Assembly: GCA_034002465.1 (NCBI GenBank)
Contig: JAVFAO010000001.1
Coordinates: forward strand, 1,086-65,085
Direction: 5' to 3'
Source: Myxococcota bacterium
GTDB lineage: Bacteria > Myxococcota_A > Bradymonadia > UBA4248 > JAVFAO01
DNA: 64,000 nt
The translations under genes and the position numbers were made by a program. The notes under the pieces are model-generated. The model searched no databases, had not been told where the DNA came from, and worked only from the letters and a program-made list of their open reading frames with translations. Position 1 is the first letter of the stretch. Every line of letters starts with the position of its first letter. Shown one piece after another: positions 13,802 through 26,144 of this stretch.

Positions 13802-14749
13802 ATGTTTGCTTTGCTCTGCTCGCTGAGCTCCACAACAACTTGGGGGAGCAGGCCAAGTGCCCAATCGACAAGAACTTGGGGGAGCAGGCCAAGGGCCCAA
13901 TCGACAAGAAATTGGGGGAGCAGGCCAAGTGCCCAATCGACAAGAAATTGGGGGAGCAGGCCAAGTGCCCAATCGACAAGAAGTCGAAGGCTGCCACTGC
14001 GACTGCTGAGCGCCGTCTCAGCCGTCGTGTTGTGCGCGTTGCTCGGGTCCAACGCCTGGTGCGAAGAGCTGCCTGCATCGGAGCAGCCTCCGCTACCCGT
14101 CTCAGAAGCCTTCGAGGAGCGCCTGGCACTGGGCTTCGTCGTCGGCCTCAACCGCTCCATCCTCACTGCGCCCGAGGACGCTGTGGGTGAAGCGCAGTTC
14201 ATGAGCGGCACCGCGTTCAATGGCTTTGGCGTCTCTTTTGGGCCCAGCGCGCGCTTCGGCATCCTCCCTTTCCTGGCCTTGCGCCTGGAGCTGCTCTTCT
14301 CGCTCGATCGCGCGACGGGCTACGAGAAGCTGGGTGAACAATCCCGCGAGCTCGAGCTCTCGACTTGGCGTCTACGCGTGCCCGTGCAGATCCTTGGCGG
14401 CTATGACTTCGGCTTTCTCCGACTCGACCTGGGGCTTGGCCCCGAGTTGGCGCTACCGCTCACCGTCGACGCCACACTCGAGGAGAAGAACATCCCCATC
14501 GAGGCGAGTTTTCCGCTGAGCGTGAGCGCTGGCGCTAGTTTTGGTTTGCGAATGAGCGCTGGCGTTGCCGTCGAGCTGGGAGAAGGGCTTTTTCTGCCAA
14601 GCAATGTTCATCTAAGCTGGTTTCCGGGAGTGCCCGATACTAGCCGAGAGCGCTTCGAGGGCTTCCAGTCTATGACTCAGCCTGGAAAGCTGCGGGTCGA
14701 GTACCAGTGGTGTGTTCTCTGGGATATCGGAATCAGCTACGAGCTGTGA
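13802..14749 (+). CDS. Putative outer-membrane beta-barrel-like secreted protein (start uncertain)
   Basis: ORF ends ..WDIGISYEL with alternating beta-strand-like segments. The signal-like segment LPLRLLSAVSAVVLCALLGSNAWC lies after the repeat array and has no in-frame ATG, so the true start is probably non-ATG near 13985. Confidence 0.5.
   Translation: MFALLCSLSSTTTWGSRPSAQSTRTWGSRPRAQSTRNWGSRPSAQSTRNWGSRPSAQSTRSRRLPLRLLSAVSAVVLCALLGSNAWCEELPASEQPPLPVSEAFEERLALGFVVGLNRSILTAPEDAVGEAQFMSGTAFNGFGVSFGPSARFGILPFLALRLELLFSLDRATGYEKLGEQSRELELSTWRLRVPVQILGGYDFGFLRLDLGLGPELALPLTVDATLEEKNIPIEASFPLSVSAGASFGLRMSAGVAVELGEGLFLPSNVHLSWFPGVPDTSRERFEGFQSMTQPGKLRVEYQWCVLWDIGISYEL
13840..13983 (+). repeat. 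Family-1 repeat array, 4 units
   Basis: ttgggggagcaggccaag[tg]gcccaatcgacaagaa[ac], period 36. Overlaps the 5' part of the longest ORF of the next gene. Confidence 0.9.
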
Positions 14750-17166
14750 ACCCATCGGGCAAGCAGTGGACGTCGTCCAGAAGCTGCCATTTCTGGCTTT
14801 CGAATCGCTGTACGGTCCTGCTCGCGTTGGCTGTAACTGTATTCTTATTTCCATCAATTGCGCTTGCCGATGAGGGCGTTCGCTTCATCGAAGCTGGGCA
14901 GCGTCTCGAAGAGGTCGACAGCCTGGGGGGCTGGAGCGAAGAGGATGGGGCCGTCTCGGCCCAGCCGACCCGAGAGAGCAAGAGTGGCTACTGGCTGCCC
15001 CGCAGCATCTGGATCCCTGCGCCGCGTCATGTCTCTGTGCGGCTGGATGACCATAAACACCTCGAGCTCGGGGTCTTGCTCGATGCTCGGCTCGAGGATG
15101 GTGCGCTGCTTGGCCACAATGTTCGGATCAGCGGCAAGCAGCTCCTGATCGAGCGCCTCGAACGAAACGAGGTGGTCGTTCTTGGCGAAGCCGACATCAA
15201 GGGGCTGGGCAAGAAGGGAGGCAGCGTCGAGCTGCACATCTGGGCGAGTGAGGATTGGATCGTGGCGCAGCTGCAGGGCAAGCGGGTTGCTGCGGTGCTG
15301 ACGGTTGGCGCAAAGGTGCAGGCCAGGTCGCGGCTAGGGCTGCGTCGTCAGGCTGGCGTGCGGGCGCGGGGAAGTGTGCGCGAGCTCTCGATGCGCCCCC
15401 TGTGCCCCATCGAACAGTCGAGCGCTATGCCACGTAGCTTCTTCGCCACCGTGCGAAGCAGTGATTGGAACGCCGTGATTGATGGCTTGCCTTTGATCGA
15501 GCCCATGGAGCAGCTTGCAGACCAGACGGTGCTCAAAGTGCAGCTCGAAACCCTGGGAGCGCTGTATTGCGCTGGCGTGGAGCCAGTGGAGTTGTTCACC
15601 GAGACCCCTCTCAAGTATGTGGATCCGGCGTTTCTCAGTGAACGTCGTCGAACGCCTCGGCGCAGCGCAAGTGGTTTCGTGATCGACGCTTCGTACAAAG
15701 ACAGCAGCATGGTGCGGGCCATCTTGCGGGGATACCAGCAGCGTTTTCCCGAGCTGAGCGAGCTCGTGGAGCTCGGCCGCAGCCACCAGGGGCGCCCAAT
15801 CTTGGCGCTCGCGATTGGCCGTGAGCGTTCTGGCACCAAACCCAGCATCCTGCTCAATGGCAGTCATCACGGCGACGAGCCGCTTTCGACGGAGATCGTT
15901 CTCGACGCGGTGCAGCAGCTCTTGGAGTGTTCAGAGGATCCCGAAATTTCTGCATTTCTCGATGAGTTCGTGATCTGGTGCGTGCCCTTGGTGAACCCAG
16001 ATGGCAACGCCATGCACGTCGAGCGGAGCCTGCGCCGAGGACGCAAGAACGGCAGGGACCTTGATGATGACGGTATCATTGGCTTGGACGAAGGCGTGGA
16101 TCTGAACCGGAACTATCCCTTCCGATGGGGGGAGACTGGCGAGGAGGGGAGCCGCTCCAAACCGACGCACCCGTGGTTTCGTGGGCCTTCCGCAGCTTCC
16201 GAGCCAGAGACCAAAGCCATGATGGCCCTTGCCGAACAAGAGCGCTTCGTCGCGTCGATATCCTATCACACGGGGACGGTGGCGGTGCTCGCCCCCTACA
16301 CCATCAATGAGGTTCCCAATCCCGAGCCCAACGAGGCCTGGGTGGTTGCCGAGGAGCTCATCAGTCGCCTGCCCTCTCCCGTGAAGGGGCGGGACTTTCC
16401 TTTGCGTCGACAGCTCTACTCGGTAGATGGGACCGATCAGGATTGGCATCGCTATACCCATGGCACGTTGGCGCTGCTGGTCGAGGCCTCGCCGGACAGT
16501 CCGATTGACCTAGAGAAACGCCAACGGGCCATTGTCGCCAATCGTGCTTCTTGGATGGGATTGCTGCAGCGATGGGTGGATGGACCAGGCCTCGTCGTCC
16601 AGGTGCTCAACGACCGTGGAGAGGCGGTGCAGGCGGAGCTCAGTATCGACGAGCTGCCGGTTTTCGCGGGTGAGAAGTGGCGAACACGCTGTCGAGATGG
16701 CCGCTTCTTTCGCTACCTGCCGGCGCGTGGACGCTACACCGTGCGGGCGCGAGTCGCAGGCGCAGAGGCCACCAAGGAAGTCGATGTGCGCAATTTCGAT
16801 GGTGAAGTCGTCATCATCCTGGAGGGCGCAGAGGGTGGAGGGAGGTCTTGTGAATCCCGGGTTCTGCGTCAGGATTTGATTATCGCCCAGCAATTCGTGC
16901 GGGCAAGCTGGGCTGGACTGGTGGCCAACTGGCTGGCCCCACCGCCTGCTGCTGAAGACGGCGTCGTTCGGGAGCCAGCCCCTATGGCTGTGGAGGCAGA
17001 AGCGCCGCAGCCTCTTGTCGAGCCAACGGACTCAGGCTGCGGCTGCCGTCAGACCTCGCCATTGCGTTGGAGTTGGTGGGCGTGGCTCTTGGTGGCGCTC
17101 ACGCTCAGATGGGGATCTCGAGCAGCTCGCCTTGCAGATCGACGAAGTACTCGGCGGTCCCACTGA
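14707..17166 (+). CDS. M14-family zinc carboxypeptidase with a MYXO-CTERM-like C-terminal tail
   Basis: NGSHHGDEPLS (HxxE), VPLVNPDG, DLNRNYPF and ISYHTGTVAV motifs; an N-terminal signal-like helix; C-terminal DSGCGCRQ..WLLVALTLRWGSRAARL. Confidence 0.8.
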   Translation: MVCSLGYRNQLRAVNPSGKQWTSSRSCHFWLSNRCTVLLALAVTVFLFPSIALADEGVRFIEAGQRLEEVDSLGGWSEEDGAVSAQPTRESKSGYWLPRSIWIPAPRHVSVRLDDHKHLELGVLLDARLEDGALLGHNVRISGKQLLIERLERNEVVVLGEADIKGLGKKGGSVELHIWASEDWIVAQLQGKRVAAVLTVGAKVQARSRLGLRRQAGVRARGSVRELSMRPLCPIEQSSAMPRSFFATVRSSDWNAVIDGLPLIEPMEQLADQTVLKVQLETLGALYCAGVEPVELFTETPLKYVDPAFLSERRRTPRRSASGFVIDASYKDSSMVRAILRGYQQRFPELSELVELGRSHQGRPILALAIGRERSGTKPSILLNGSHHGDEPLSTEIVLDAVQQLLECSEDPEISAFLDEFVIWCVPLVNPDGNAMHVERSLRRGRKNGRDLDDDGIIGLDEGVDLNRNYPFRWGETGEEGSRSKPTHPWFRGPSAASEPETKAMMALAEQERFVASISYHTGTVAVLAPYTINEVPNPEPNEAWVVAEELISRLPSPVKGRDFPLRRQLYSVDGTDQDWHRYTHGTLALLVEASPDSPIDLEKRQRAIVANRASWMGLLQRWVDGPGLVVQVLNDRGEAVQAELSIDELPVFAGEKWRTRCRDGRFFRYLPARGRYTVRARVAGAEATKEVDVRNFDGEVVIILEGAEGGGRSCESRVLRQDLIIAQQFVRASWAGLVANWLAPPPAAEDGVVREPAPMAVEAEAPQPLVEPTDSGCGCRQTSPLRWSWWAWLLVALTLRWGSRAARLADRRSTRRSH

Positions 17167-18316
17167 AGATCTTCTCGATGGTCTTCTCGTTGACGCCGAG
17201 CTTTTCGTAGAAGGCCTTGTCGGTTTTGCCTTCGAGGTTGAAGAGCCACACTGCCTCGAGGCCGGGGAAGTAGACCAGCTTGGGCGGTGCGAGCTCAGCG
17301 TCGGCGGGCATCTCCGCAGTGAAGATGAACTGGGCGCAGTCGATGGTGGTGGCGTCGACGTCGGGTTTGAGCTTGGGCGCAGCAGCAAGGACGGCGTCAC
17401 ACTCACCCTTGGCCTCGTACTTGACGAGCACTTTCCCAGGCGAAACCTCGGCGAGCGCCACAGCGGGTTTGCTCTTGATGAAGGTGTCGAGGGGCCCGAG
17501 GTCGGTGGGGAGGGTCATGTCGGTGGCGTCCTCGGCGAGCTTGAAGGCAAAGGCGAGCTGCCAATTGGGGGCGAGCTCGAGGTTGGCGATGCCGAGCAGG
17601 GTCTTGCAGCTTTCGTTGCCGCCCTCTTGGTTACAGGCAAACTTGGCATCGAGTAGGTTGCGGCTCCCAATTAAGGCTTTCATGGCGGGTGCAGCTTTGG
17701 CTTTGGCCATCATCGCCACATCGGGAGCGTCCTGCGCGGTGCTACCCTTTGGCACTTCCTTTCCTTCGCCGAGGAAGAACTGGTGTGCCTTGAGCTGGGA
17801 CTCTTTGAGGTATTCAGCGGCGACGAGCTTGAGCAATGGCTCGACGGCCTGACCGATGGCGCCGTTGAGTTGTACGTAGAGCTTGCCGTCGATCACGACG
17901 TTCCAGGGCAAGCGGTGCTCACAGCGGGAAGCCGTGAAGAGCTCGGCGCGACCTTCTTTGTAGGGCAGGCTGATACGCAGTGTGGGTTCGCTTTCTGCGG
18001 GTCGACAGGTCTTGACGCCATCCGAGGGGATGAGCTGGTCGATAGCCGCTGTCAGGGCGGGAATGAGGGCCTCGTCGATGGTCTCCTCGTCGTATTCGTA
18101 GACGTCGTCATAGGACTGCAGAGAAATGCGTCGAGTCTTGTGACCCTTGGGGGCTGGGTATTCAATCGAAATCTCGACACGCTTGGATTCGTCCTCACTG
18201 CGCTTTGCAGGTGCCGGCTTTGCGGCTTCCTCCTCTTTGGATGAGTCGCAGGCGCTGAGTGGGAGCAGGAGGCTCAGTATGAGGACGGCAGAAATGGGGT
18301 AGTGTTGACGGCTCAT
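17105..18316 (-). CDS. Hypothetical lipoprotein
   Basis: Start at the internal ATG gives MSRQHYPISAVLILSLLLPLSAC (lipobox). The ORF is otherwise coherent. It overlaps the carboxypeptidase 3' end convergently. Confidence 0.6.
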   Translation of the reverse strand: MSRQHYPISAVLILSLLLPLSACDSSKEEEAAKPAPAKRSEDESKRVEISIEYPAPKGHKTRRISLQSYDDVYEYDEETIDEALIPALTAAIDQLIPSDGVKTCRPAESEPTLRISLPYKEGRAELFTASRCEHRLPWNVVIDGKLYVQLNGAIGQAVEPLLKLVAAEYLKESQLKAHQFFLGEGKEVPKGSTAQDAPDVAMMAKAKAAPAMKALIGSRNLLDAKFACNQEGGNESCKTLLGIANLELAPNWQLAFAFKLAEDATDMTLPTDLGPLDTFIKSKPAVALAEVSPGKVLVKYEAKGECDAVLAAAPKLKPDVDATTIDCAQFIFTAEMPADAELAPPKLVYFPGLEAVWLFNLEGKTDKAFYEKLGVNEKTIEKIFSGTAEYFVDLQGELLEIPI

Positions 18317-18530
18317 CTTCGTTTCCTCCTGTGCTTCAGCGCTCGTCCTGGGTCTTTGTCGACGAGCGCTCACGATTCAACCATCAAGATACCTGGGTGC
18401 CCAGCAAACACAAGCGTCGAGTCCCTTGCTCGCTGGTCGTGCTCCGCTGGGGCCGAAGAGCTGGCAAACTCGGGACCGTCGCGCTGCTCGTGTTATTGTG
18501 CAGCAGCGCGCTCGTGGCTCTGAGCTTTGC

Positions 18531-19517
18531 TCAAGTTGATGCTGTGCGCTCCCGGCTTGCCGACTCAGGTGCACAGAGAGGATCCTGTCCGTCGCTATGC
18601 TCCGCGCTGAGCACGCAGCCTCCAGAGCAGTGTCCGCTGACGTGGAGGCTGCGCTTGCGACGCTGGGTTTGATGCGCAAGCAAGACCTCATTCCACGATT
18701 GTGTGCGAAGATCGCCGAGGATTTCTGCAGAGAGGGCGCAGTTTCGAACTCGACCGATGGGGTCGATGCAGAATCCTGGGTTTGGGGACATGGCGGCGCA
18801 AGTGCCGCCCGCGAGCCCGAGGGCGTGTGGCCGGAGGTCAGCAGGGATGGCGATGGCAAGCTCGATTCGCAGACCGAGAAGGGTCTGGCACCGAACGGCG
18901 ATATCGAGCGCCTCCACGACCTGGGCGCGACTTGGATGCAGTCGTCGCAGCGTTTCATCGGTCGAGCTGAGAGCGAGCCGAGAGAAGGCGACGCGCTCAA
19001 TGCCCATGCCAATGGCCAACTCGAGCACGGGCAGCCACTGCTCTGCGTTCTCGGAGGTGCAGACAAAGCTCAGTGAAATCGGCACCTTGGCGCGGAGCAG
19101 TGCCTCCATTCCGCGCAGTGTTGCAGCAAAGCTGCCCTCACCCTTCAAGCGGTCATGCCGGCCGGCATCGGCCGCGAGCAGGGTGGGTTGCAGCATCCAG
19201 ATGCCGAGTCGTGCGAGCTCGCGGGCCTCGGCGTCAGAGATGGACTCGGCGTCGCTGATCAGCGCGACGCCGAGCTGCTGTGCGCGCAGCTCCGCGATGA
19301 CGTCGAAGCAGTCGGGGTGCAGCAGCGGCTCACCACCGGAGAGCATGATCCCGGCAAACGCGCCGGCCCGCGCGGCGCCGATGGCGAGGGCGCAGAGCTC
19401 GCCGCTTGGCAGCGCAGTGTGGGGGCGCAGTGCCTTGGGGAGGGCGCGGTAGTAACAGTAGCGGCACTGCCGCAGGCTGCGGCTGTGCAGCTCGAGGATG
19501 AGGGCGCGCGCGCTCAC
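18531..19517 (-). CDS. Radical SAM/SPASM-like protein with a non-canonical SxxxCxxC cluster motif
   Basis: N-terminus ..[18 protein letters not shown] aligns to the canonical ..TSACNLRCKYCYY motif but has Ser in place of the first Cys. Also has the GGEPLL SAM motif and a C-terminal Cys-rich SPASM-like segment ([21 protein letters not shown]...HCSGGC). The GTG start overlaps the stop of the upstream gene (GTGA). Confidence 0.7.
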
Positions 19518-20584
19518 GCGTGGCGCTCGAGGTAGCGGGAGCGCAGGGCCTGACGTGCGGCTTGCAGGCGCTGATCAAGGTTCCAAGAGCAGCCTTGCAC
19601 GAAGTCGAGTACGGAGATGCGAGCATGGCGCAAATCTTCGAGGCGCGCAGCATCGGCACGCCGCTGGTTGAGGTCTTGTAGCACGGCGCTTTGTCGGCAG
19701 GCGTCTCCGATGCCATCGCCGTCTCGGTCCCACTGCTTGGGGTTGGGAACCTCAGGGCAGTTGTCGCAGACATCGCCAATGCCATCGTCGTCCTGGTCGG
19801 CTTGGTCGGGGTTGGCGTGGCGTGGGCAGTTATCAGGACCAGTGAGGGATGGACAGGGACTATTCTGAGGATAGCCACCGATGATGCCGTCGGCGTCAGC
19901 GTCATAGCTGCACCAGGGTCCGCACGGCGACATGCAGGTCATCTCACTGGCGCAGGCGCTGCCCATGTCGCCGAAGAAATCACAGGCCACCGCCTGCTCT
20001 GGGTTCGGGGCGAAGGGGCAGTTGTCGGTAGCGTCAGCGATGCCGTCGCCATCTCGGTCGTCGTTGTCATCGCAGAGGTCGCCGAAGCCATCGGCGTCTT
20101 GGTCGGTCTGCTCGGGGTTTGCGATGTAGGGACAGTTGTCGAAGACGTCAGGGACGGCGTCGGCGTCGCTGTCGAGTCGGCAGCGGTCATCACAGCAGTC
20201 GAGGGAGTTAGGGTCGAAGCTACAGGCATCTCCGATGCCATCACCATCTTGATCCTGCTGGTCTGGGTTGGCTGCGAATGGGCAGTTGTCGCTGCGATTG
20301 GGGATGCCGTCAGCGTCGTGGTCGGGGTTGCCGGTGGTGTCAAGGCTGGTGTCGACTTCGACGCTATCGGCATCGGCGGGCAGCTCCGCATTGGGCTCGA
20401 GCTCGGTGACCCGGACATGGTCTCGACAACCGACGAGGCTCGCTCCCAGGGCCAGCAGCAGGCCAATGAAGGGGAGCAGCGCCGAGAGCTGGGCTTGGCA
20501 TCCGAGAAGCGAGACGCTGAGTGCGAAGCAGATGCTGCACAGGAGCAGAAGGGAGCGCCACTGAGCTTGGCTGTGTCGCAGCAT
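19514..20584 (-). CDS. Thrombospondin type 3 repeat (TSP3) lipoprotein
   Basis: About 8 calcium-binding TSP3 repeats (DNCPxxxNPDQxDxDxDGxGDxCD), two lipobox-like segments (SLLGC, SLVGC) and a Cys-rich insert. Confidence 0.8.
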
Positions 20585-21922: not shown

Positions 21923-23437
21923 TCAGTTGAGGATGAAGTAGGCTGCGACAGTGCCAGCGCCGCCGAGCAGCAGGATGATCAGGATGATCCAGAGCAGGGT
22001 GTTGCTAGGGGGGGCGACGGGCTCACCGAGGTTGTAGCCGGGGTCGGGGTAGGCTGGCCCTTGGGGACCGTTTTGCCCGTAGGCGCGGCGCATCTGGTCG
22101 ACGTTGATGGGCACGGTCGACTGCTCTGCGAGCTCTCGTTGTGGACCCTGCTGTTGATATCCCTGCTGTTGGTACCCCTGCTGTTGTTGGTACCCCTGCT
22201 GTTGTGGGTACCCCTGTTGTTGTGGGTACCCCTGCTGTGGGTAGGCTTGCTGAGCCTGTTGCTGTTGGTACCCTTGTTGAGGGTACCCTTGCTGTTGCGG
22301 CTGCCCCTGCTGCTGTGCGGGAGGAGCGTTTCTCGGGCCTGGTTGAGGCGGAGGAGGGGGGGCGCCGCCGACGGACTGGAGGGGCAGGGTTTTGGGCTTC
22401 TTGGCGGGGTTGGCGCGGCTGACGGCAAGAAACTTGTTGAGGTCGATGGCGCTGGTTTTTTCTTCGTAGGCGGTGGAGACGCCTTGTCCAGTGGCGAGAT
22501 AGTTGCGGAAGTCCATCCCTAGCTCTGGGGCGTTGCGCTGTCTTTGCTTGGGGTCGCAGCGCAGAGCTTTGGCGATGATGGTCCAGAGGGGGTAGGGGAT
22601 GGTGGGGGGGCCAACGAGATCCTCGTCGAGCTGTTGGGTCCTCATCTTGAGGTAGTCGAGGAGGCTACGTGCGTATTCCGCTTGTGATGAAGTGTTTGGC
22701 TGGAAGGGGAACAGTTTGGCACCGGTGAACATCTCGAAGGCGATCAGGCCGAGGCTGTAGACGTCTGTCCAAGTGTCTGTTTGCGCAAGACTTTCGTCTT
22801 CGATTGAGGGGTCGGAGAACTGCTCTGGGGCCATATATTCGGGAGTTCCCGCAAGTACGCCCTTGTCCAGGTTCTCTGCGAAGTCGCGTCCCGAGACGAT
22901 GTCCTCGGATTCGAAGAGCTTGAGCAGGCCTTGGGCGTCCTTGACGAGGCCGAGGTCCATCAGCTTCACCTGCCAGTTGCGGTTGAGCATGATGTTGTCG
23001 GGTTTGACGTCGCGGTGCACGAGACCAAGCTCGTGCAGACCACCGAAGGCGTCGCAGAGCTGGACCATGAACTGACAGCCCTCAGTGGCTCCCCAGACGG
23101 GACGATGCTTGAGGGTGTCCTTGAGGGTGGCCCCGTCTACGTATTCCATTGCCAGGAAGGGGAACCCTTCCTGTGTGTAGCCATCTCCGTAATACTGAAT
23201 ACAGAACTGGTTCGCCGGAAGCTGCTTGAGAACCTTGATCTCGCGGCTGAACCGTTTGCGAGCATCGTCTGTGGAGTTGTACTGAACCTTGACGGCGACG
23301 GGATATTCGTTGGCCATCGTGGCGTAGTACACGTAAGCGAAGGCACCCGCCCCAACGAAGTGTCGGATCGTATAGCCCCCGGGCAGCGTCTTGTTCAGGA
23401 AGTAGCTACGATCGGGTTTCATTCGCTTGCTGACCAC
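21923..23437 (-). CDS. Ser/Thr protein kinase with a Pro/Gln-rich linker and C-terminal TM anchor
   Basis: Kinase motifs VAVK, HRDVKPDNIML, DLGL and APE. A long PQ/QGY low-complexity region. C-terminal TM helix LLWIILIILLLGGAGTVAAYFIL. Confidence 0.9.
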   Translation of the reverse strand: MVSKRMKPDRSYFLNKTLPGGYTIRHFVGAGAFAYVYYATMANEYPVAVKVQYNSTDDARKRFSREIKVLKQLPANQFCIQYYGDGYTQEGFPFLAMEYVDGATLKDTLKHRPVWGATEGCQFMVQLCDAFGGLHELGLVHRDVKPDNIMLNRNWQVKLMDLGLVKDAQGLLKLFESEDIVSGRDFAENLDKGVLAGTPEYMAPEQFSDPSIEDESLAQTDTWTDVYSLGLIAFEMFTGAKLFPFQPNTSSQAEYARSLLDYLKMRTQQLDEDLVGPPTIPYPLWTIIAKALRCDPKQRQRNAPELGMDFRNYLATGQGVSTAYEEKTSAIDLNKFLAVSRANPAKKPKTLPLQSVGGAPPPPPQPGPRNAPPAQQQGQPQQQGYPQQGYQQQQAQQAYPQQGYPQQQGYPQQQGYQQQQGYQQQGYQQQGPQRELAEQSTVPINVDQMRRAYGQNGPQGPAYPDPGYNLGEPVAPPSNTLLWIILIILLLGGAGTVAAYFILN

Positions 23438-24186: not shown

Positions 24187-24675
24187 TTGGTGCAACACAA
24201 GACTCGGTCCGAGCGATGTGCTCGGCCGCTGGAGGCTGCTGTGGTCTTCTGGACGAGTCTGCTTCTCGCTGCTTGCGCTTTCTCACAGCTCGACGATGAC
24301 GCTCAGCTTCAGTGGTCGGTTCACCTCCACAGCCCTGAGCTGGGGCTGGCCGATAGTGACCTGAACTTGCTCTTCGATGGGAAGAGCTGTTTCGAGGCGC
24401 AAGTTGATGGCGCGAGTTGCAAGCCGCTCCCTGCCCAAGCCCGAGCTGGGTGGCGTCGTTCGACCTGCTCAGTGCTGCCCTCGCCTCTCTCGGCTTCGCT
24501 CGACGTGTGTCAGGAGGTGGTCGCCGTGCACTGTGAGTTTGGCGCCGGAAGTCTGCGCTATGAGGCTTGGAGAGAGGGTTCGAGCATCAGGCTCTTGCAG
24601 CGTGAGCGCGACCCCGACGGGCAGCACGGCGAGCGGGTCCAGATGCGTGTGCTAGCACCCCTGGAGCATCCATGA
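24187..24675 (+). CDS. Hypothetical small protein, translationally coupled to the downstream radical SAM gene
   Basis: 162-aa ORF with a hydrophobic N-terminal segment (VVFWTSLLLAACAF). Its stop overlaps the ATG of the next gene (ATGA). Confidence 0.4.
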   Translation: MVQHKTRSERCARPLEAAVVFWTSLLLAACAFSQLDDDAQLQWSVHLHSPELGLADSDLNLLFDGKSCFEAQVDGASCKPLPAQARAGWRRSTCSVLPSPLSASLDVCQEVVAVHCEFGAGSLRYEAWREGSSIRLLQRERDPDGQHGERVQMRVLAPLEHP

Positions 24676-26144
24676 GCAAGCGCCGTGCTCCGCGGGAGCT
24701 TCCCAGTCGGGCCCGCTTGCTCGCCGCAGAACGCGGGGCTCCGATCACCCGAGGGGCCCATGCCGTCGCGCTGCTCGCCCCCGTTCCCTATGCCACTGCC
24801 ATGAGCTCGCTCGGTTTCCAGACCGTGCATCGGCTGCTCGCCGAGCTGCCTGAGCTCTGTATCGAGCGCTTCTTCCTTCCTGAGACAGGGGAGAGCCTGC
24901 TCAGCTTCGAGAGCGCGCGCAGCGTCCATGAGTTCGCGCTGATCGCTGTTTCGCTCGCTTGGGAGAATGAGCTCATCGGCCTGATGAGTTGTTTACAAGC
25001 TGCCGGTATCGCGCCGTGGGCGGCGGAGCGCGCTCCCGACAGCCCACCCATCCTCTTGGGAGGCCCCATCACCTATGCCAATCCGTTGGCGTTTGCTCCG
25101 TTCTGCGATGTCATGCTCATGGGGGAGGCCGAGGGCTTGCTCGAGCGGATGCTGCACGCCCAGCTCGAGGCGCCAGACAAGGCGACTTGGCTCGCCCGCA
25201 TCGGCGACTGGGATGGTGTCTATGTGCCGGCACTTCATGGCGAATGTCTGCGTCCATTGAACTGTGCTCCAGACACTGCCCTGCCTGCACGCTCGCTGAT
25301 CTACTCGCCCTACGCCGAGTTCGCCGACATGCATCTGGTGGAGCTGGCCCGCGGTTGTTCGCGACGATGTGCTTTCTGCGTGATGCGCCGACAGACCGGG
25401 CGCAGCATGCGCGTGCTCAGCGCCGAGAGAGTGCTCGCTGCGGCAGACGTCGAGCTGGAGCGTGTTGGGCTGGTTGGTGCTGCGGTCAGCGATCATCCCC
25501 AGCTTCTCGAGGTGCTCGAAGCTCTGCTCGCCCGAGGGCAGCACTGCAGTCTTTCGAGTGTGCGGGCTGACCGGGTCAGCGAGCCGTTGGTGGCGCTGCT
25601 GCGTGCAGGTGGTGCGCGACGTTTGACCGTGGGGGTGGATGGGGCGAGTCAGCGTTTGCGTGATGCGCTGTTCAAGGGGATACGCCTCTCCGACATCGAG
25701 CGTTGCATCGACATTGCGCGCTCACACGCGATGGCGCTGAAGTTCTATTTGATGATTGGGGTTCCCGGCGAACTCGATGAAGACCTGAGCGACTTCGCCA
25801 CCTGGCTCGCGAGCGCCGTCCGCGGTACGCGAAGCAGCCTGGCGGTGTCACCCTTCGTGCCCAAAGCGCATACGCCTTTGGAGAGAGAGGGGTTTGCGCC
25901 GGCTGCTGAGCTCGAGCGCCGTTTGGGCATTCTGCGCAAGCTCTTGGGAGGCAAAGTGGAGCTGCGAGCCACCAGCGTTCGATGGGCACGGGTCGAAGCT
26001 GCCATCGCTGGCGCTCCCTGGTCTCTGGCCGAGCGGGCTTGGCGAGCACACTGCGCTGGGGGGAGCTTTGCCGCCTGGCGCGATGAGGTGCTCACTTGGA
26101 GCGAGCAGCAGGATCCCGCTTCACGTCCTTGGCTGGAGAGCTGA
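24672..26144 (+). CDS. B12-binding-domain radical SAM protein (TIGR03960-like)
   Basis: CxxxCxxC motif ELARGCSRRCAFCVMRR, an N-terminal B12-binding-like region, and a C-terminal alpha/beta region typical of this rSAM subfamily. Confidence 0.8.
   Translation: MSKRRAPRELPSRARLLAAERGAPITRGAHAVALLAPVPYATAMSSLGFQTVHRLLAELPELCIERFFLPETGESLLSFESARSVHEFALIAVSLAWENELIGLMSCLQAAGIAPWAAERAPDSPPILLGGPITYANPLAFAPFCDVMLMGEAEGLLERMLHAQLEAPDKATWLARIGDWDGVYVPALHGECLRPLNCAPDTALPARSLIYSPYAEFADMHLVELARGCSRRCAFCVMRRQTGRSMRVLSAERVLAAADVELERVGLVGAAVSDHPQLLEVLEALLARGQHCSLSSVRADRVSEPLVALLRAGGARRLTVGVDGASQRLRDALFKGIRLSDIERCIDIARSHAMALKFYLMIGVPGELDEDLSDFATWLASAVRGTRSSLAVSPFVPKAHTPLEREGFAPAAELERRLGILRKLLGGKVELRATSVRWARVEAAIAGAPWSLAERAWRAHCAGGSFAAWRDEVLTWSEQQDPASRPWLES

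Follow-up and report, generated by a model that had tools for sequence, protein, structure and literature searches.

A TSP3-coupled radical SAM/SPASM protein of a Myxococcota bacterium lacks conserved cluster cysteines and is probably a catalytically dead maturase derivative

The 64,000-nucleotide stretch of Myxococcota DNA analyzed here (the window) contains an ORF of the radical SAM/SPASM family, located at 18531-19517 on the minus strand, which encodes a protein of 328 amino acids from a GTG start and in which four of ten otherwise conserved cysteines are missing. The protein probably (at about 0.6) derives from a TSP3-protein maturase and is catalytically dead, with its fold, reading frame and coupling with the partner gene preserved. 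Pfam matches, homologs and AF2 modelling identify the ORF as a radical SAM gene with a degenerate SPASM part, and its third-position GC content (GC3) is that of a coding sequence.

Results

The N-terminus of the protein reads [23 protein letters not shown]. Residues 16-167 match the Pfam family Radical_SAM (PF04055) with 52.2 bits (E=1e-13; cutoff 29.5), and the Pfam search yielded no SPASM match for this ORF. The Pfam score and the presence of cysteine in 44/44 homologs at the column of Ser14 (see below) show that the homology is real and not a chance similarity. It runs from end to end in a single frame, all indels are in-frame, no frameshift was found across the 328 codons and the in-frame GC3 (0.754) is like that of the neighbouring genes. 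A second intact copy of the gene was not found within the window.

The AF2 model of the protein had a mean pLDDT of 90.3 and a pTM of 0.89; its weakest internal stretch, residues 291-300, adjoins a deletion described below. Foldseek returned a probability of 1.00 against many radical SAM structures, with SkfB, which we take to be a Twitch-type enzyme, as the best match, followed by SuiB, BlsE and anSME. Continued production of the protein is suggested by the intact frame, the coding-type GC3, the kept coupling and the confidently predicted fold.

Translation of the ORF showed SxxxCxxC in place of the three-cysteine CxxxCxxC motif (Ser14, Cys18 and Cys21; 19455-19478, minus strand). This had been claimed in a first-pass annotation covering codons 1-21 (19455-19517), with a quoted peptide two codons longer (to 19449), and it is borne out by the translation and by the alignment with 44 homologs, all of which have cysteine at the first position. 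Codon 14 is indeed AGC, one base away from TGC (19476-19478, minus strand; gct on the plus strand), and a cysteine codon would need an A at plus-strand position 19478. The codons of Cys18 (TGC, 19464-19466) and Cys21 (TGT, 19455-19457), also on the minus strand, are intact. No other frame and no upstream start gives back a cysteine at codon 14.

The surroundings of the motif are partly kept. The aromatic residue after Cys21 is present, as is the SAM-binding GGE motif (GGEP, residues 61-64; 19326-19337, minus strand), which occupies invariant columns. Three residues before the lost cysteine the protein has His11 (19485-19487, minus strand), where 43 of the 44 homologs have threonine, and the alignment places SDAE (residues 88-91; 19245-19256, minus strand) where the family has a near-invariant TDGG. 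In characterised radical SAM enzymes, replacing a cysteine of CxxxCxxC normally abolishes cluster binding or activity.

The losses extend to the C-terminal domain. Ten cysteine columns are conserved when the window protein is aligned with the 44 homologs: 439 of the 440 homolog cells are kept, and a single homolog is without one cysteine. Even outgroups only 27-30% identical have cysteine at the Ser14 column. The window protein keeps 6/10 of these cysteines, in the pattern SCCDCC-LCC. The first cysteine of the C-terminal domain, a predicted AuxI ligand present in 43/44 homologs, is replaced by Asp227 (GAC, two bases from TGC; 18837-18839, minus strand). The first cysteine of the CX2C pair has been removed by a 10-residue (30-nt) in-frame deletion at KRSL (residues 288-291; 18645-18656, minus strand), and the second is replaced by Leu291 (CTC, two bases from TGC). 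The alignment identifies as kept the pair Cys240 to Cys260, together with the conserved Gly255 (18738-18800, minus strand), and CSGGC (Cys297 and Cys301; 18615-18629, minus strand), the end of CX2CX5CX3C.

At least five substitutions and the 30-nt deletion are required for the four cysteine losses. A frameshift concealing the CX2C was rejected, as neither of the other two frames holds such a motif. The first-pass annotation had offered three explanations of Ser14, namely an error in sequencing, a mutation that recently inactivated the enzyme, or a variant that is non-canonical or non-catalytic. The last of these fits best: with three more invariant cluster cysteines missing, a single-base event is not the whole story.

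The family profile aligned best with PqqE (6C8V, E=3e-36), over nearly its full length and cysteine for cysteine. The general mapping of SPASM cysteines to clusters was reportedly laid out by Grell, Goldman and Drennan in 2015. In SPASM enzymes, upstream Cys and the last Cys of CX3C hold AuxI, and the cysteines of CX2CX5C together with a downstream ligand hold AuxII. On this mapping, the RS site of the window protein is predicted to consist of two cysteines and Ser14, the AuxI site of three cysteines and Asp227, and the AuxII site of one of its three conserved cysteines plus the lineage-specific Cys315.

SPASM domains are defined by seven to eight conserved cysteines including CX2CX5CX3C and by two auxiliary clusters (PMC10452713), a cysteine pattern absent from the window protein. 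Twitch domains are truncated SPASM domains with a single auxiliary cluster (PMC10452713; PMC9012708) and have three or four cysteines; Cys240, Cys260, Cys301 and Asp227 remain in the C-terminal domain of the window protein. An AuxI with three cysteines occurs in CteB and an Asp-ligated AuxII in PqqE (PMC10452713). The full SPASM motif is also missing from 55 of the 183 homologs with an intact CxxxCxxC, so that loss of AuxII alone does not imply inactivity. Since such a loss is compatible with activity, codon 14 is the deciding residue, and the earlier proposal that function turns on this codon is upheld.

The window protein also stands apart from its relatives at other invariant sites. In a leave-one-out count, which took in outgroups down to 27% identity, it deviates at 12 of 48 near-invariant columns, and the worst homolog at four. 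The eight non-cysteine changes are T11H, R67H, T88S, G90A, A170G, L171M, G185S and a conserved proline lost in the deletion; several of them adjoin the cluster loop, the GGE motif (R67H) and the end of the TDGG strand. The multi-site loss of ligands and this unique departure from invariant sites suggest that radical chemistry has probably been lost. Relative to the remaining near-invariant positions, cysteine losses were enriched (4/10 versus 2/26, p=0.04) at the strictest threshold only, the difference not being significant at looser thresholds.

These departures are not matched by a general decay of the gene. Family-conserved sites other than cysteines are kept at 65%, the same level as in the Cys-intact outgroups P0045 and P0046. 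In a neighbour-joining tree the root-to-tip distance of the window protein was 1.58, within the family range of 1.26-1.63, the branch being long and not exceptional. The identities of the window radical SAM protein and of its TSP3 partner resemble those of the deep-branching, Cys-intact pair at locus L031. Accelerated evolution of the whole gene is unsupported by this distance and these identities, and the window pair is a deep, poorly sampled lineage.

A different explanation is that the protein is an active radical SAM enzyme, with a SAM cluster held by Cys18, Cys21 and an oxygen or nitrogen ligand (Ser14 or His11) and with a Twitch-like domain working through Asp227, Cys240, Cys260 and Cys301. 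Auxiliary clusters held by three cysteines and an aspartate, or by three cysteines, are known (PMC10452713), and many intact-motif homologs lack the full SPASM motif (55/183, as above). The T11H change is lineage-specific and falls in the cluster loop at a position conserved in 43 of 44 homologs; the fold is confidently predicted, its best Foldseek match is SkfB, and both GGEP and the aromatic residue that follows Cys21 are retained. The window-specific cysteines Cys42, Cys70, Cys210, Cys250 and Cys315 could conceivably stand in for lost ligands. This explanation is nevertheless unlikely: the eight further changes at near-invariant residues lie around the predicted active site, serine at position 14 is found in none of the N-terminus-covering homologs among the 218 collected, and replacement of a cysteine of this motif has the general effect stated above.

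A word-index search of 5.8 billion proteins returned the window protein's own record (MDX9719109.1, from a Myxococcota MAG, on a contig of 77,906 bp) and a next match 42% identical. HMMER, run exhaustively on 1.84 billion representatives, gave a best non-self match at 41% identity, and no homolog is near enough to pass as an ortholog from the same lineage. No relative more than 42% identical was found in these two collections, in GTDB genomes or in JGI metagenome contigs, which were scanned by exact DNA with codon 14 masked and by peptide patterns. Among the 218 collected homologs, 22 do not match CxxxCxxC, and most of these are N-terminally truncated or start after the motif. P0054, P0107, P0200 and P0212 start after the cluster loop, and P0134, with CxxxCxxG and a deletion, looks decayed; these five may reflect wrongly called starts, may be fragments, or may be additional relatives that naturally lack the cluster. 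No NCBIfam model reached its cutoff for the enzyme, the partner or the neighbour. The PqqE model (TIGR02109) gave 127 bits for P0003 and 101 for P0070, both canonical relatives, and 55 (54.9) for the window protein.

The support for the sequence itself differs along the gene. The full protein is known from one assembly only, and its 90% cluster holds the same contig only, with a V/M difference at the start; the Ser14 codon is supported by that assembly alone. A Logan contig, SRR25572339_117914 (L043), located through the downstream orphan gene, is 100% identical to the window over 13958-19456. The KRSL deletion site is identical in this contig, so that Asp227, the deletion and Leu291 are confirmed by an assembly independent of the MAG. 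The contig ends inside the Cys21 codon (19456-19457), and 20 nt separate its end from codon 14. Contigs there are about 5 kb long, and if breaks are random, one so close to codon 14 has a chance of about 1%; a strain variant, a coverage dip or a graph tangle could explain it. A search with the partner sequence found no Logan fragment of the TSP3 partner.

Codon 14 lies at the apex of an imperfect, GC-rich hairpin of 13 bp (19460-19492; -17.9 kcal/mol and z=-2.86 when folded as DNA), whose loop is closed by pairing of the A of AGC with the T of the Leu15 codon. Sequence contexts of this type are prone to Illumina errors and coverage dips. Codon 14 might then truly be TGC, AGC being a base or consensus error or a minor allele, and the enzyme would be active and merely without its second auxiliary cluster. 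The single-base difference, the coverage of the codon by one assembly, its place in the hairpin and the nearby end of the Logan contig are in line with this possibility, and in the wider superfamily activity is compatible with the loss of AuxII alone. Per base, however, consensus errors are rare, and if the contig broke at 19456 for de Bruijn graph reasons, the variant would be expected at 19457, in the Cys21 codon, and not at 19478. In addition, the protein shows 11 other near-invariant departures, most of them confirmed by the second assembly, beside which a real loss at codon 14 is unsurprising. We consider an error or minor allele at this codon very unlikely.

The gene upstream (19514-20584, minus strand) encodes a TSP3-repeat partner of 356 amino acids with four Pfam TSP_3 stretches and two hydrophobic N-terminal stretches. 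Its TGA stop overlaps the GTG start of the radical SAM gene in the tetranucleotide GTGA (19514-19517, minus strand), an arrangement of translational coupling. From this overlap the two genes are coupled, in agreement with the first-pass annotation. At the N-terminus of the partner (20420-20584, minus strand), the tandem hydrophobic segments each end in a lipobox-like L-x-G-C (LLGC and LVGC), and such tandem segments are conserved in most partners of the family.

The same gene order is found in related genomes. In at least 15 homolog loci the radical SAM gene lies directly after a TSP3-repeat gene and overlaps it by 4 or 14 nt; the coupled loci are L001-L005, L007, L008, L010-L017, L031, L040 and L042, and they come from Myxococcales, Haliangium and Nannocystaceae MAGs. 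The conserved pair occupies, for example, 4851-7035 in L001, 4896-7044 in L003, 3877-6032 in L040, 4258-6062 in L042 and 18531-20584 in the window. L040 and L042 hold P0070, the nearest relative of the window protein, and P0044. The distant homologs P0042 and P0046 are not TSP3-coupled. The partners of the family share the L-x-G-C N-terminus, TSP3 repeats, a Cys-rich core (GDACDLC..C..PCG..CCYDADGDG..GG) and a helical tail.

The window partner aligns over its full length with these proteins and its gene stands in the order typical of the clade; by synteny and partner homology the window pair belongs to the Myxococcota TSP3/rSAM system. Among the clade members compared, the window protein is the only one with cluster cysteines missing, having six of the ten that characterise the TSP3-coupled clade. 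The partner itself deviates from the family at 8 of 79 near-invariant columns. Six of these lie in the Cys-rich core ([33 protein letters not shown]; 19886-19984, minus strand), which deviates from the family core and has five cysteines, not seven. These core deviations, with two cysteines lost, hint weakly at a target that is no longer modified. The partner at L012 shows similar core changes beside an intact enzyme, which makes the argument from co-degeneration a weak one.

The core loci of the family include a Peptidase_M3 gene upstream and a gene for a Pfam-less protein of 734-742 amino acids downstream, and neither neighbour is present at the window locus. This absence would agree with a functionless relic, that is, a young pseudogene caught before a frameshift or stop, which is a sub-case of the dead-derivative reading and not an additional one. 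The protein also has the most invariant-site departures of any family member, and in a window as rich in GC as this one, chance often leaves long frames open. On the other side stand the end-to-end homology in one frame with every indel in-frame, the non-cysteine conserved sites, kept as well as in functional and equally diverged outgroups, and the kept start/stop overlap with the partner gene. A relic appears rather unlikely on this evidence.

The radical SAM gene of the window has as neighbours the TSP3 protein, an orphan ORF, an M14 peptidase and a kinase. The orphan ORF (17105-18373, minus strand) lies downstream and has 422 amino acids as listed and 403 as annotated (RBU37_00065). It contains no Pfam domain and has no non-self homolog among 5.8 billion clusters; having no similarity to the 734-aa neighbour of the family, it was rejected as its counterpart. 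Its 3' end overlaps a convergent M14 carboxypeptidase ORF (14707-17166) by about 60 nt. A Ser/Thr protein kinase (21923-23437, minus strand) has a long low-complexity region rich in Q, G, Y and P, with repeated QQGYPQQGY, followed by a C-terminal transmembrane segment. A second radical SAM protein (24672-26144, plus strand) combines Radical_SAM_N2 and Radical_SAM with a canonical CSRRCAFC; it belongs to another family, not SPASM.

Discussion

We propose that the window protein has diverged within a family of PqqE-like rSAM/SPASM proteins of Myxococcota, in which the gene always follows and overlaps a TSP3 lipoprotein gene. The iron-sulfur machinery would then have been dismantled in the window lineage, leaving two of the three RS cysteines, one of three at AuxII, and three cysteines and an aspartate at AuxI. 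An improperly ligated SAM cluster would produce no 5'-deoxyadenosyl radical, and the ancestral modification of the TSP3 protein would as a result no longer be made. Because the ORF is intact, well-folding and translationally coupled, we mildly favour a protein that has kept a non-catalytic function, for instance as a binder or escort of the partner until its export, over a relic.

Several points speak against a dead enzyme. Ser14 or the nearby lineage-specific His11 might ligate the cluster. A protein that only binds would have no evident need of the GGE motif and the many core residues that have been kept. For Asp227, aspartate is an accepted type of Fe-S ligand, as in AuxII of PqqE (PMC10452713). 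It is possible, though doubtful, that the protein still functions in a manner without precedent, either with a SAM cluster held by two cysteines and Ser14 or His11, or as a pseudo-enzyme that only binds its substrate and serves as a chaperone or export escort for the TSP3 protein. Either functional reading, if true, would illustrate the evolution of a radical SAM maturase whose chemistry has become unneeded or been re-wired.

PqqE (TIGR02109; PDB 6C8V), a peptide cross-linker, shares with the window protein a partial TIM barrel and a C-terminal Fe-S domain, and it likewise has an aspartate as a cluster ligand. The window protein differs in scoring 54.9 bits against a cutoff of 381, in having no PqqA/PqqD context, in its partner, which is an exported repeat protein of 356 amino acids where PqqE has a short peptide, and in missing the first RS cysteine and the CX2C.

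Pseudo-radical-SAM proteins are already known, so the window case has precedent: TIGR04347, the curated pseudo-SAM/SPASM family of haloarchaea, is radical SAM-like without a functional cluster motif and thus of the same kind. The window protein scores 53.4 bits against its cutoff of 525 and canonical relatives score better (92 bits), so that this match reflects a shared fold only. The members of TIGR04347 presumably keep the SPASM cysteines and sit beside a true radical SAM enzyme, whereas in the window protein the SPASM part is also degraded and the window holds no second SPASM enzyme.

The Twitch enzymes (SkfB 6EFN, BtrN and MoaA) are similar in structure, SkfB being the top Foldseek match (E=1.5e-13). 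As in these enzymes, the C-terminal domain of the window protein is predicted to keep ligands for one auxiliary cluster only. Twitch enzymes, however, keep all three cysteines of CxxxCxxC, and the reduction seen here is no ancestral architecture but a recent loss inside a SPASM clade.

With regard to the partner, the nearest parallels are anSME, a cytoplasmic rSAM/SPASM enzyme that acts on an exported protein and is among the top structural matches, and QhpD, which we take to be a protein-maturing enzyme of the same type that also acts on an exported protein. In the window, similarly, the enzyme gene adjoins that of an exported protein rich in Cys and Asp, whose N-terminus is of the signal or lipoprotein type; the sulfatase and quinohemoprotein contexts are absent, and the window copy, judged by its sequence, is probably without chemistry. 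The closest relatives remain the members of the TSP3-coupled Myxococcota clade, with the same gene order and overlap, partners 36-50% and radical SAM proteins 32-41% identical to those of the window. The window pair differs from them in its missing cluster cysteines and in the absence of two neighbours found at core loci, Peptidase_M3 and the 734-aa protein.

Annotation pipelines label this ORF 'radical SAM protein', and mining for maturase-substrate pairs would count it as active. As a natural rSAM/SPASM maturase without 4/10 of its cluster ligands, it is useful for asking which non-chemical roles such proteins have. The TSP3 lipoprotein is presumed to be the substrate of the family's radical SAM enzyme. 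None of the papers searched combines 'thrombospondin type 3' with 'radical SAM', and the Myxococcota pair of a TSP3 lipoprotein and a PqqE-like radical SAM protein is apparently undescribed and uncurated. Radical SAM modification of an exported calcium-binding repeat protein of about 250-400 residues would, if true, be new biology, and the uncharacterised parent system may be a more valuable lead than the window copy.
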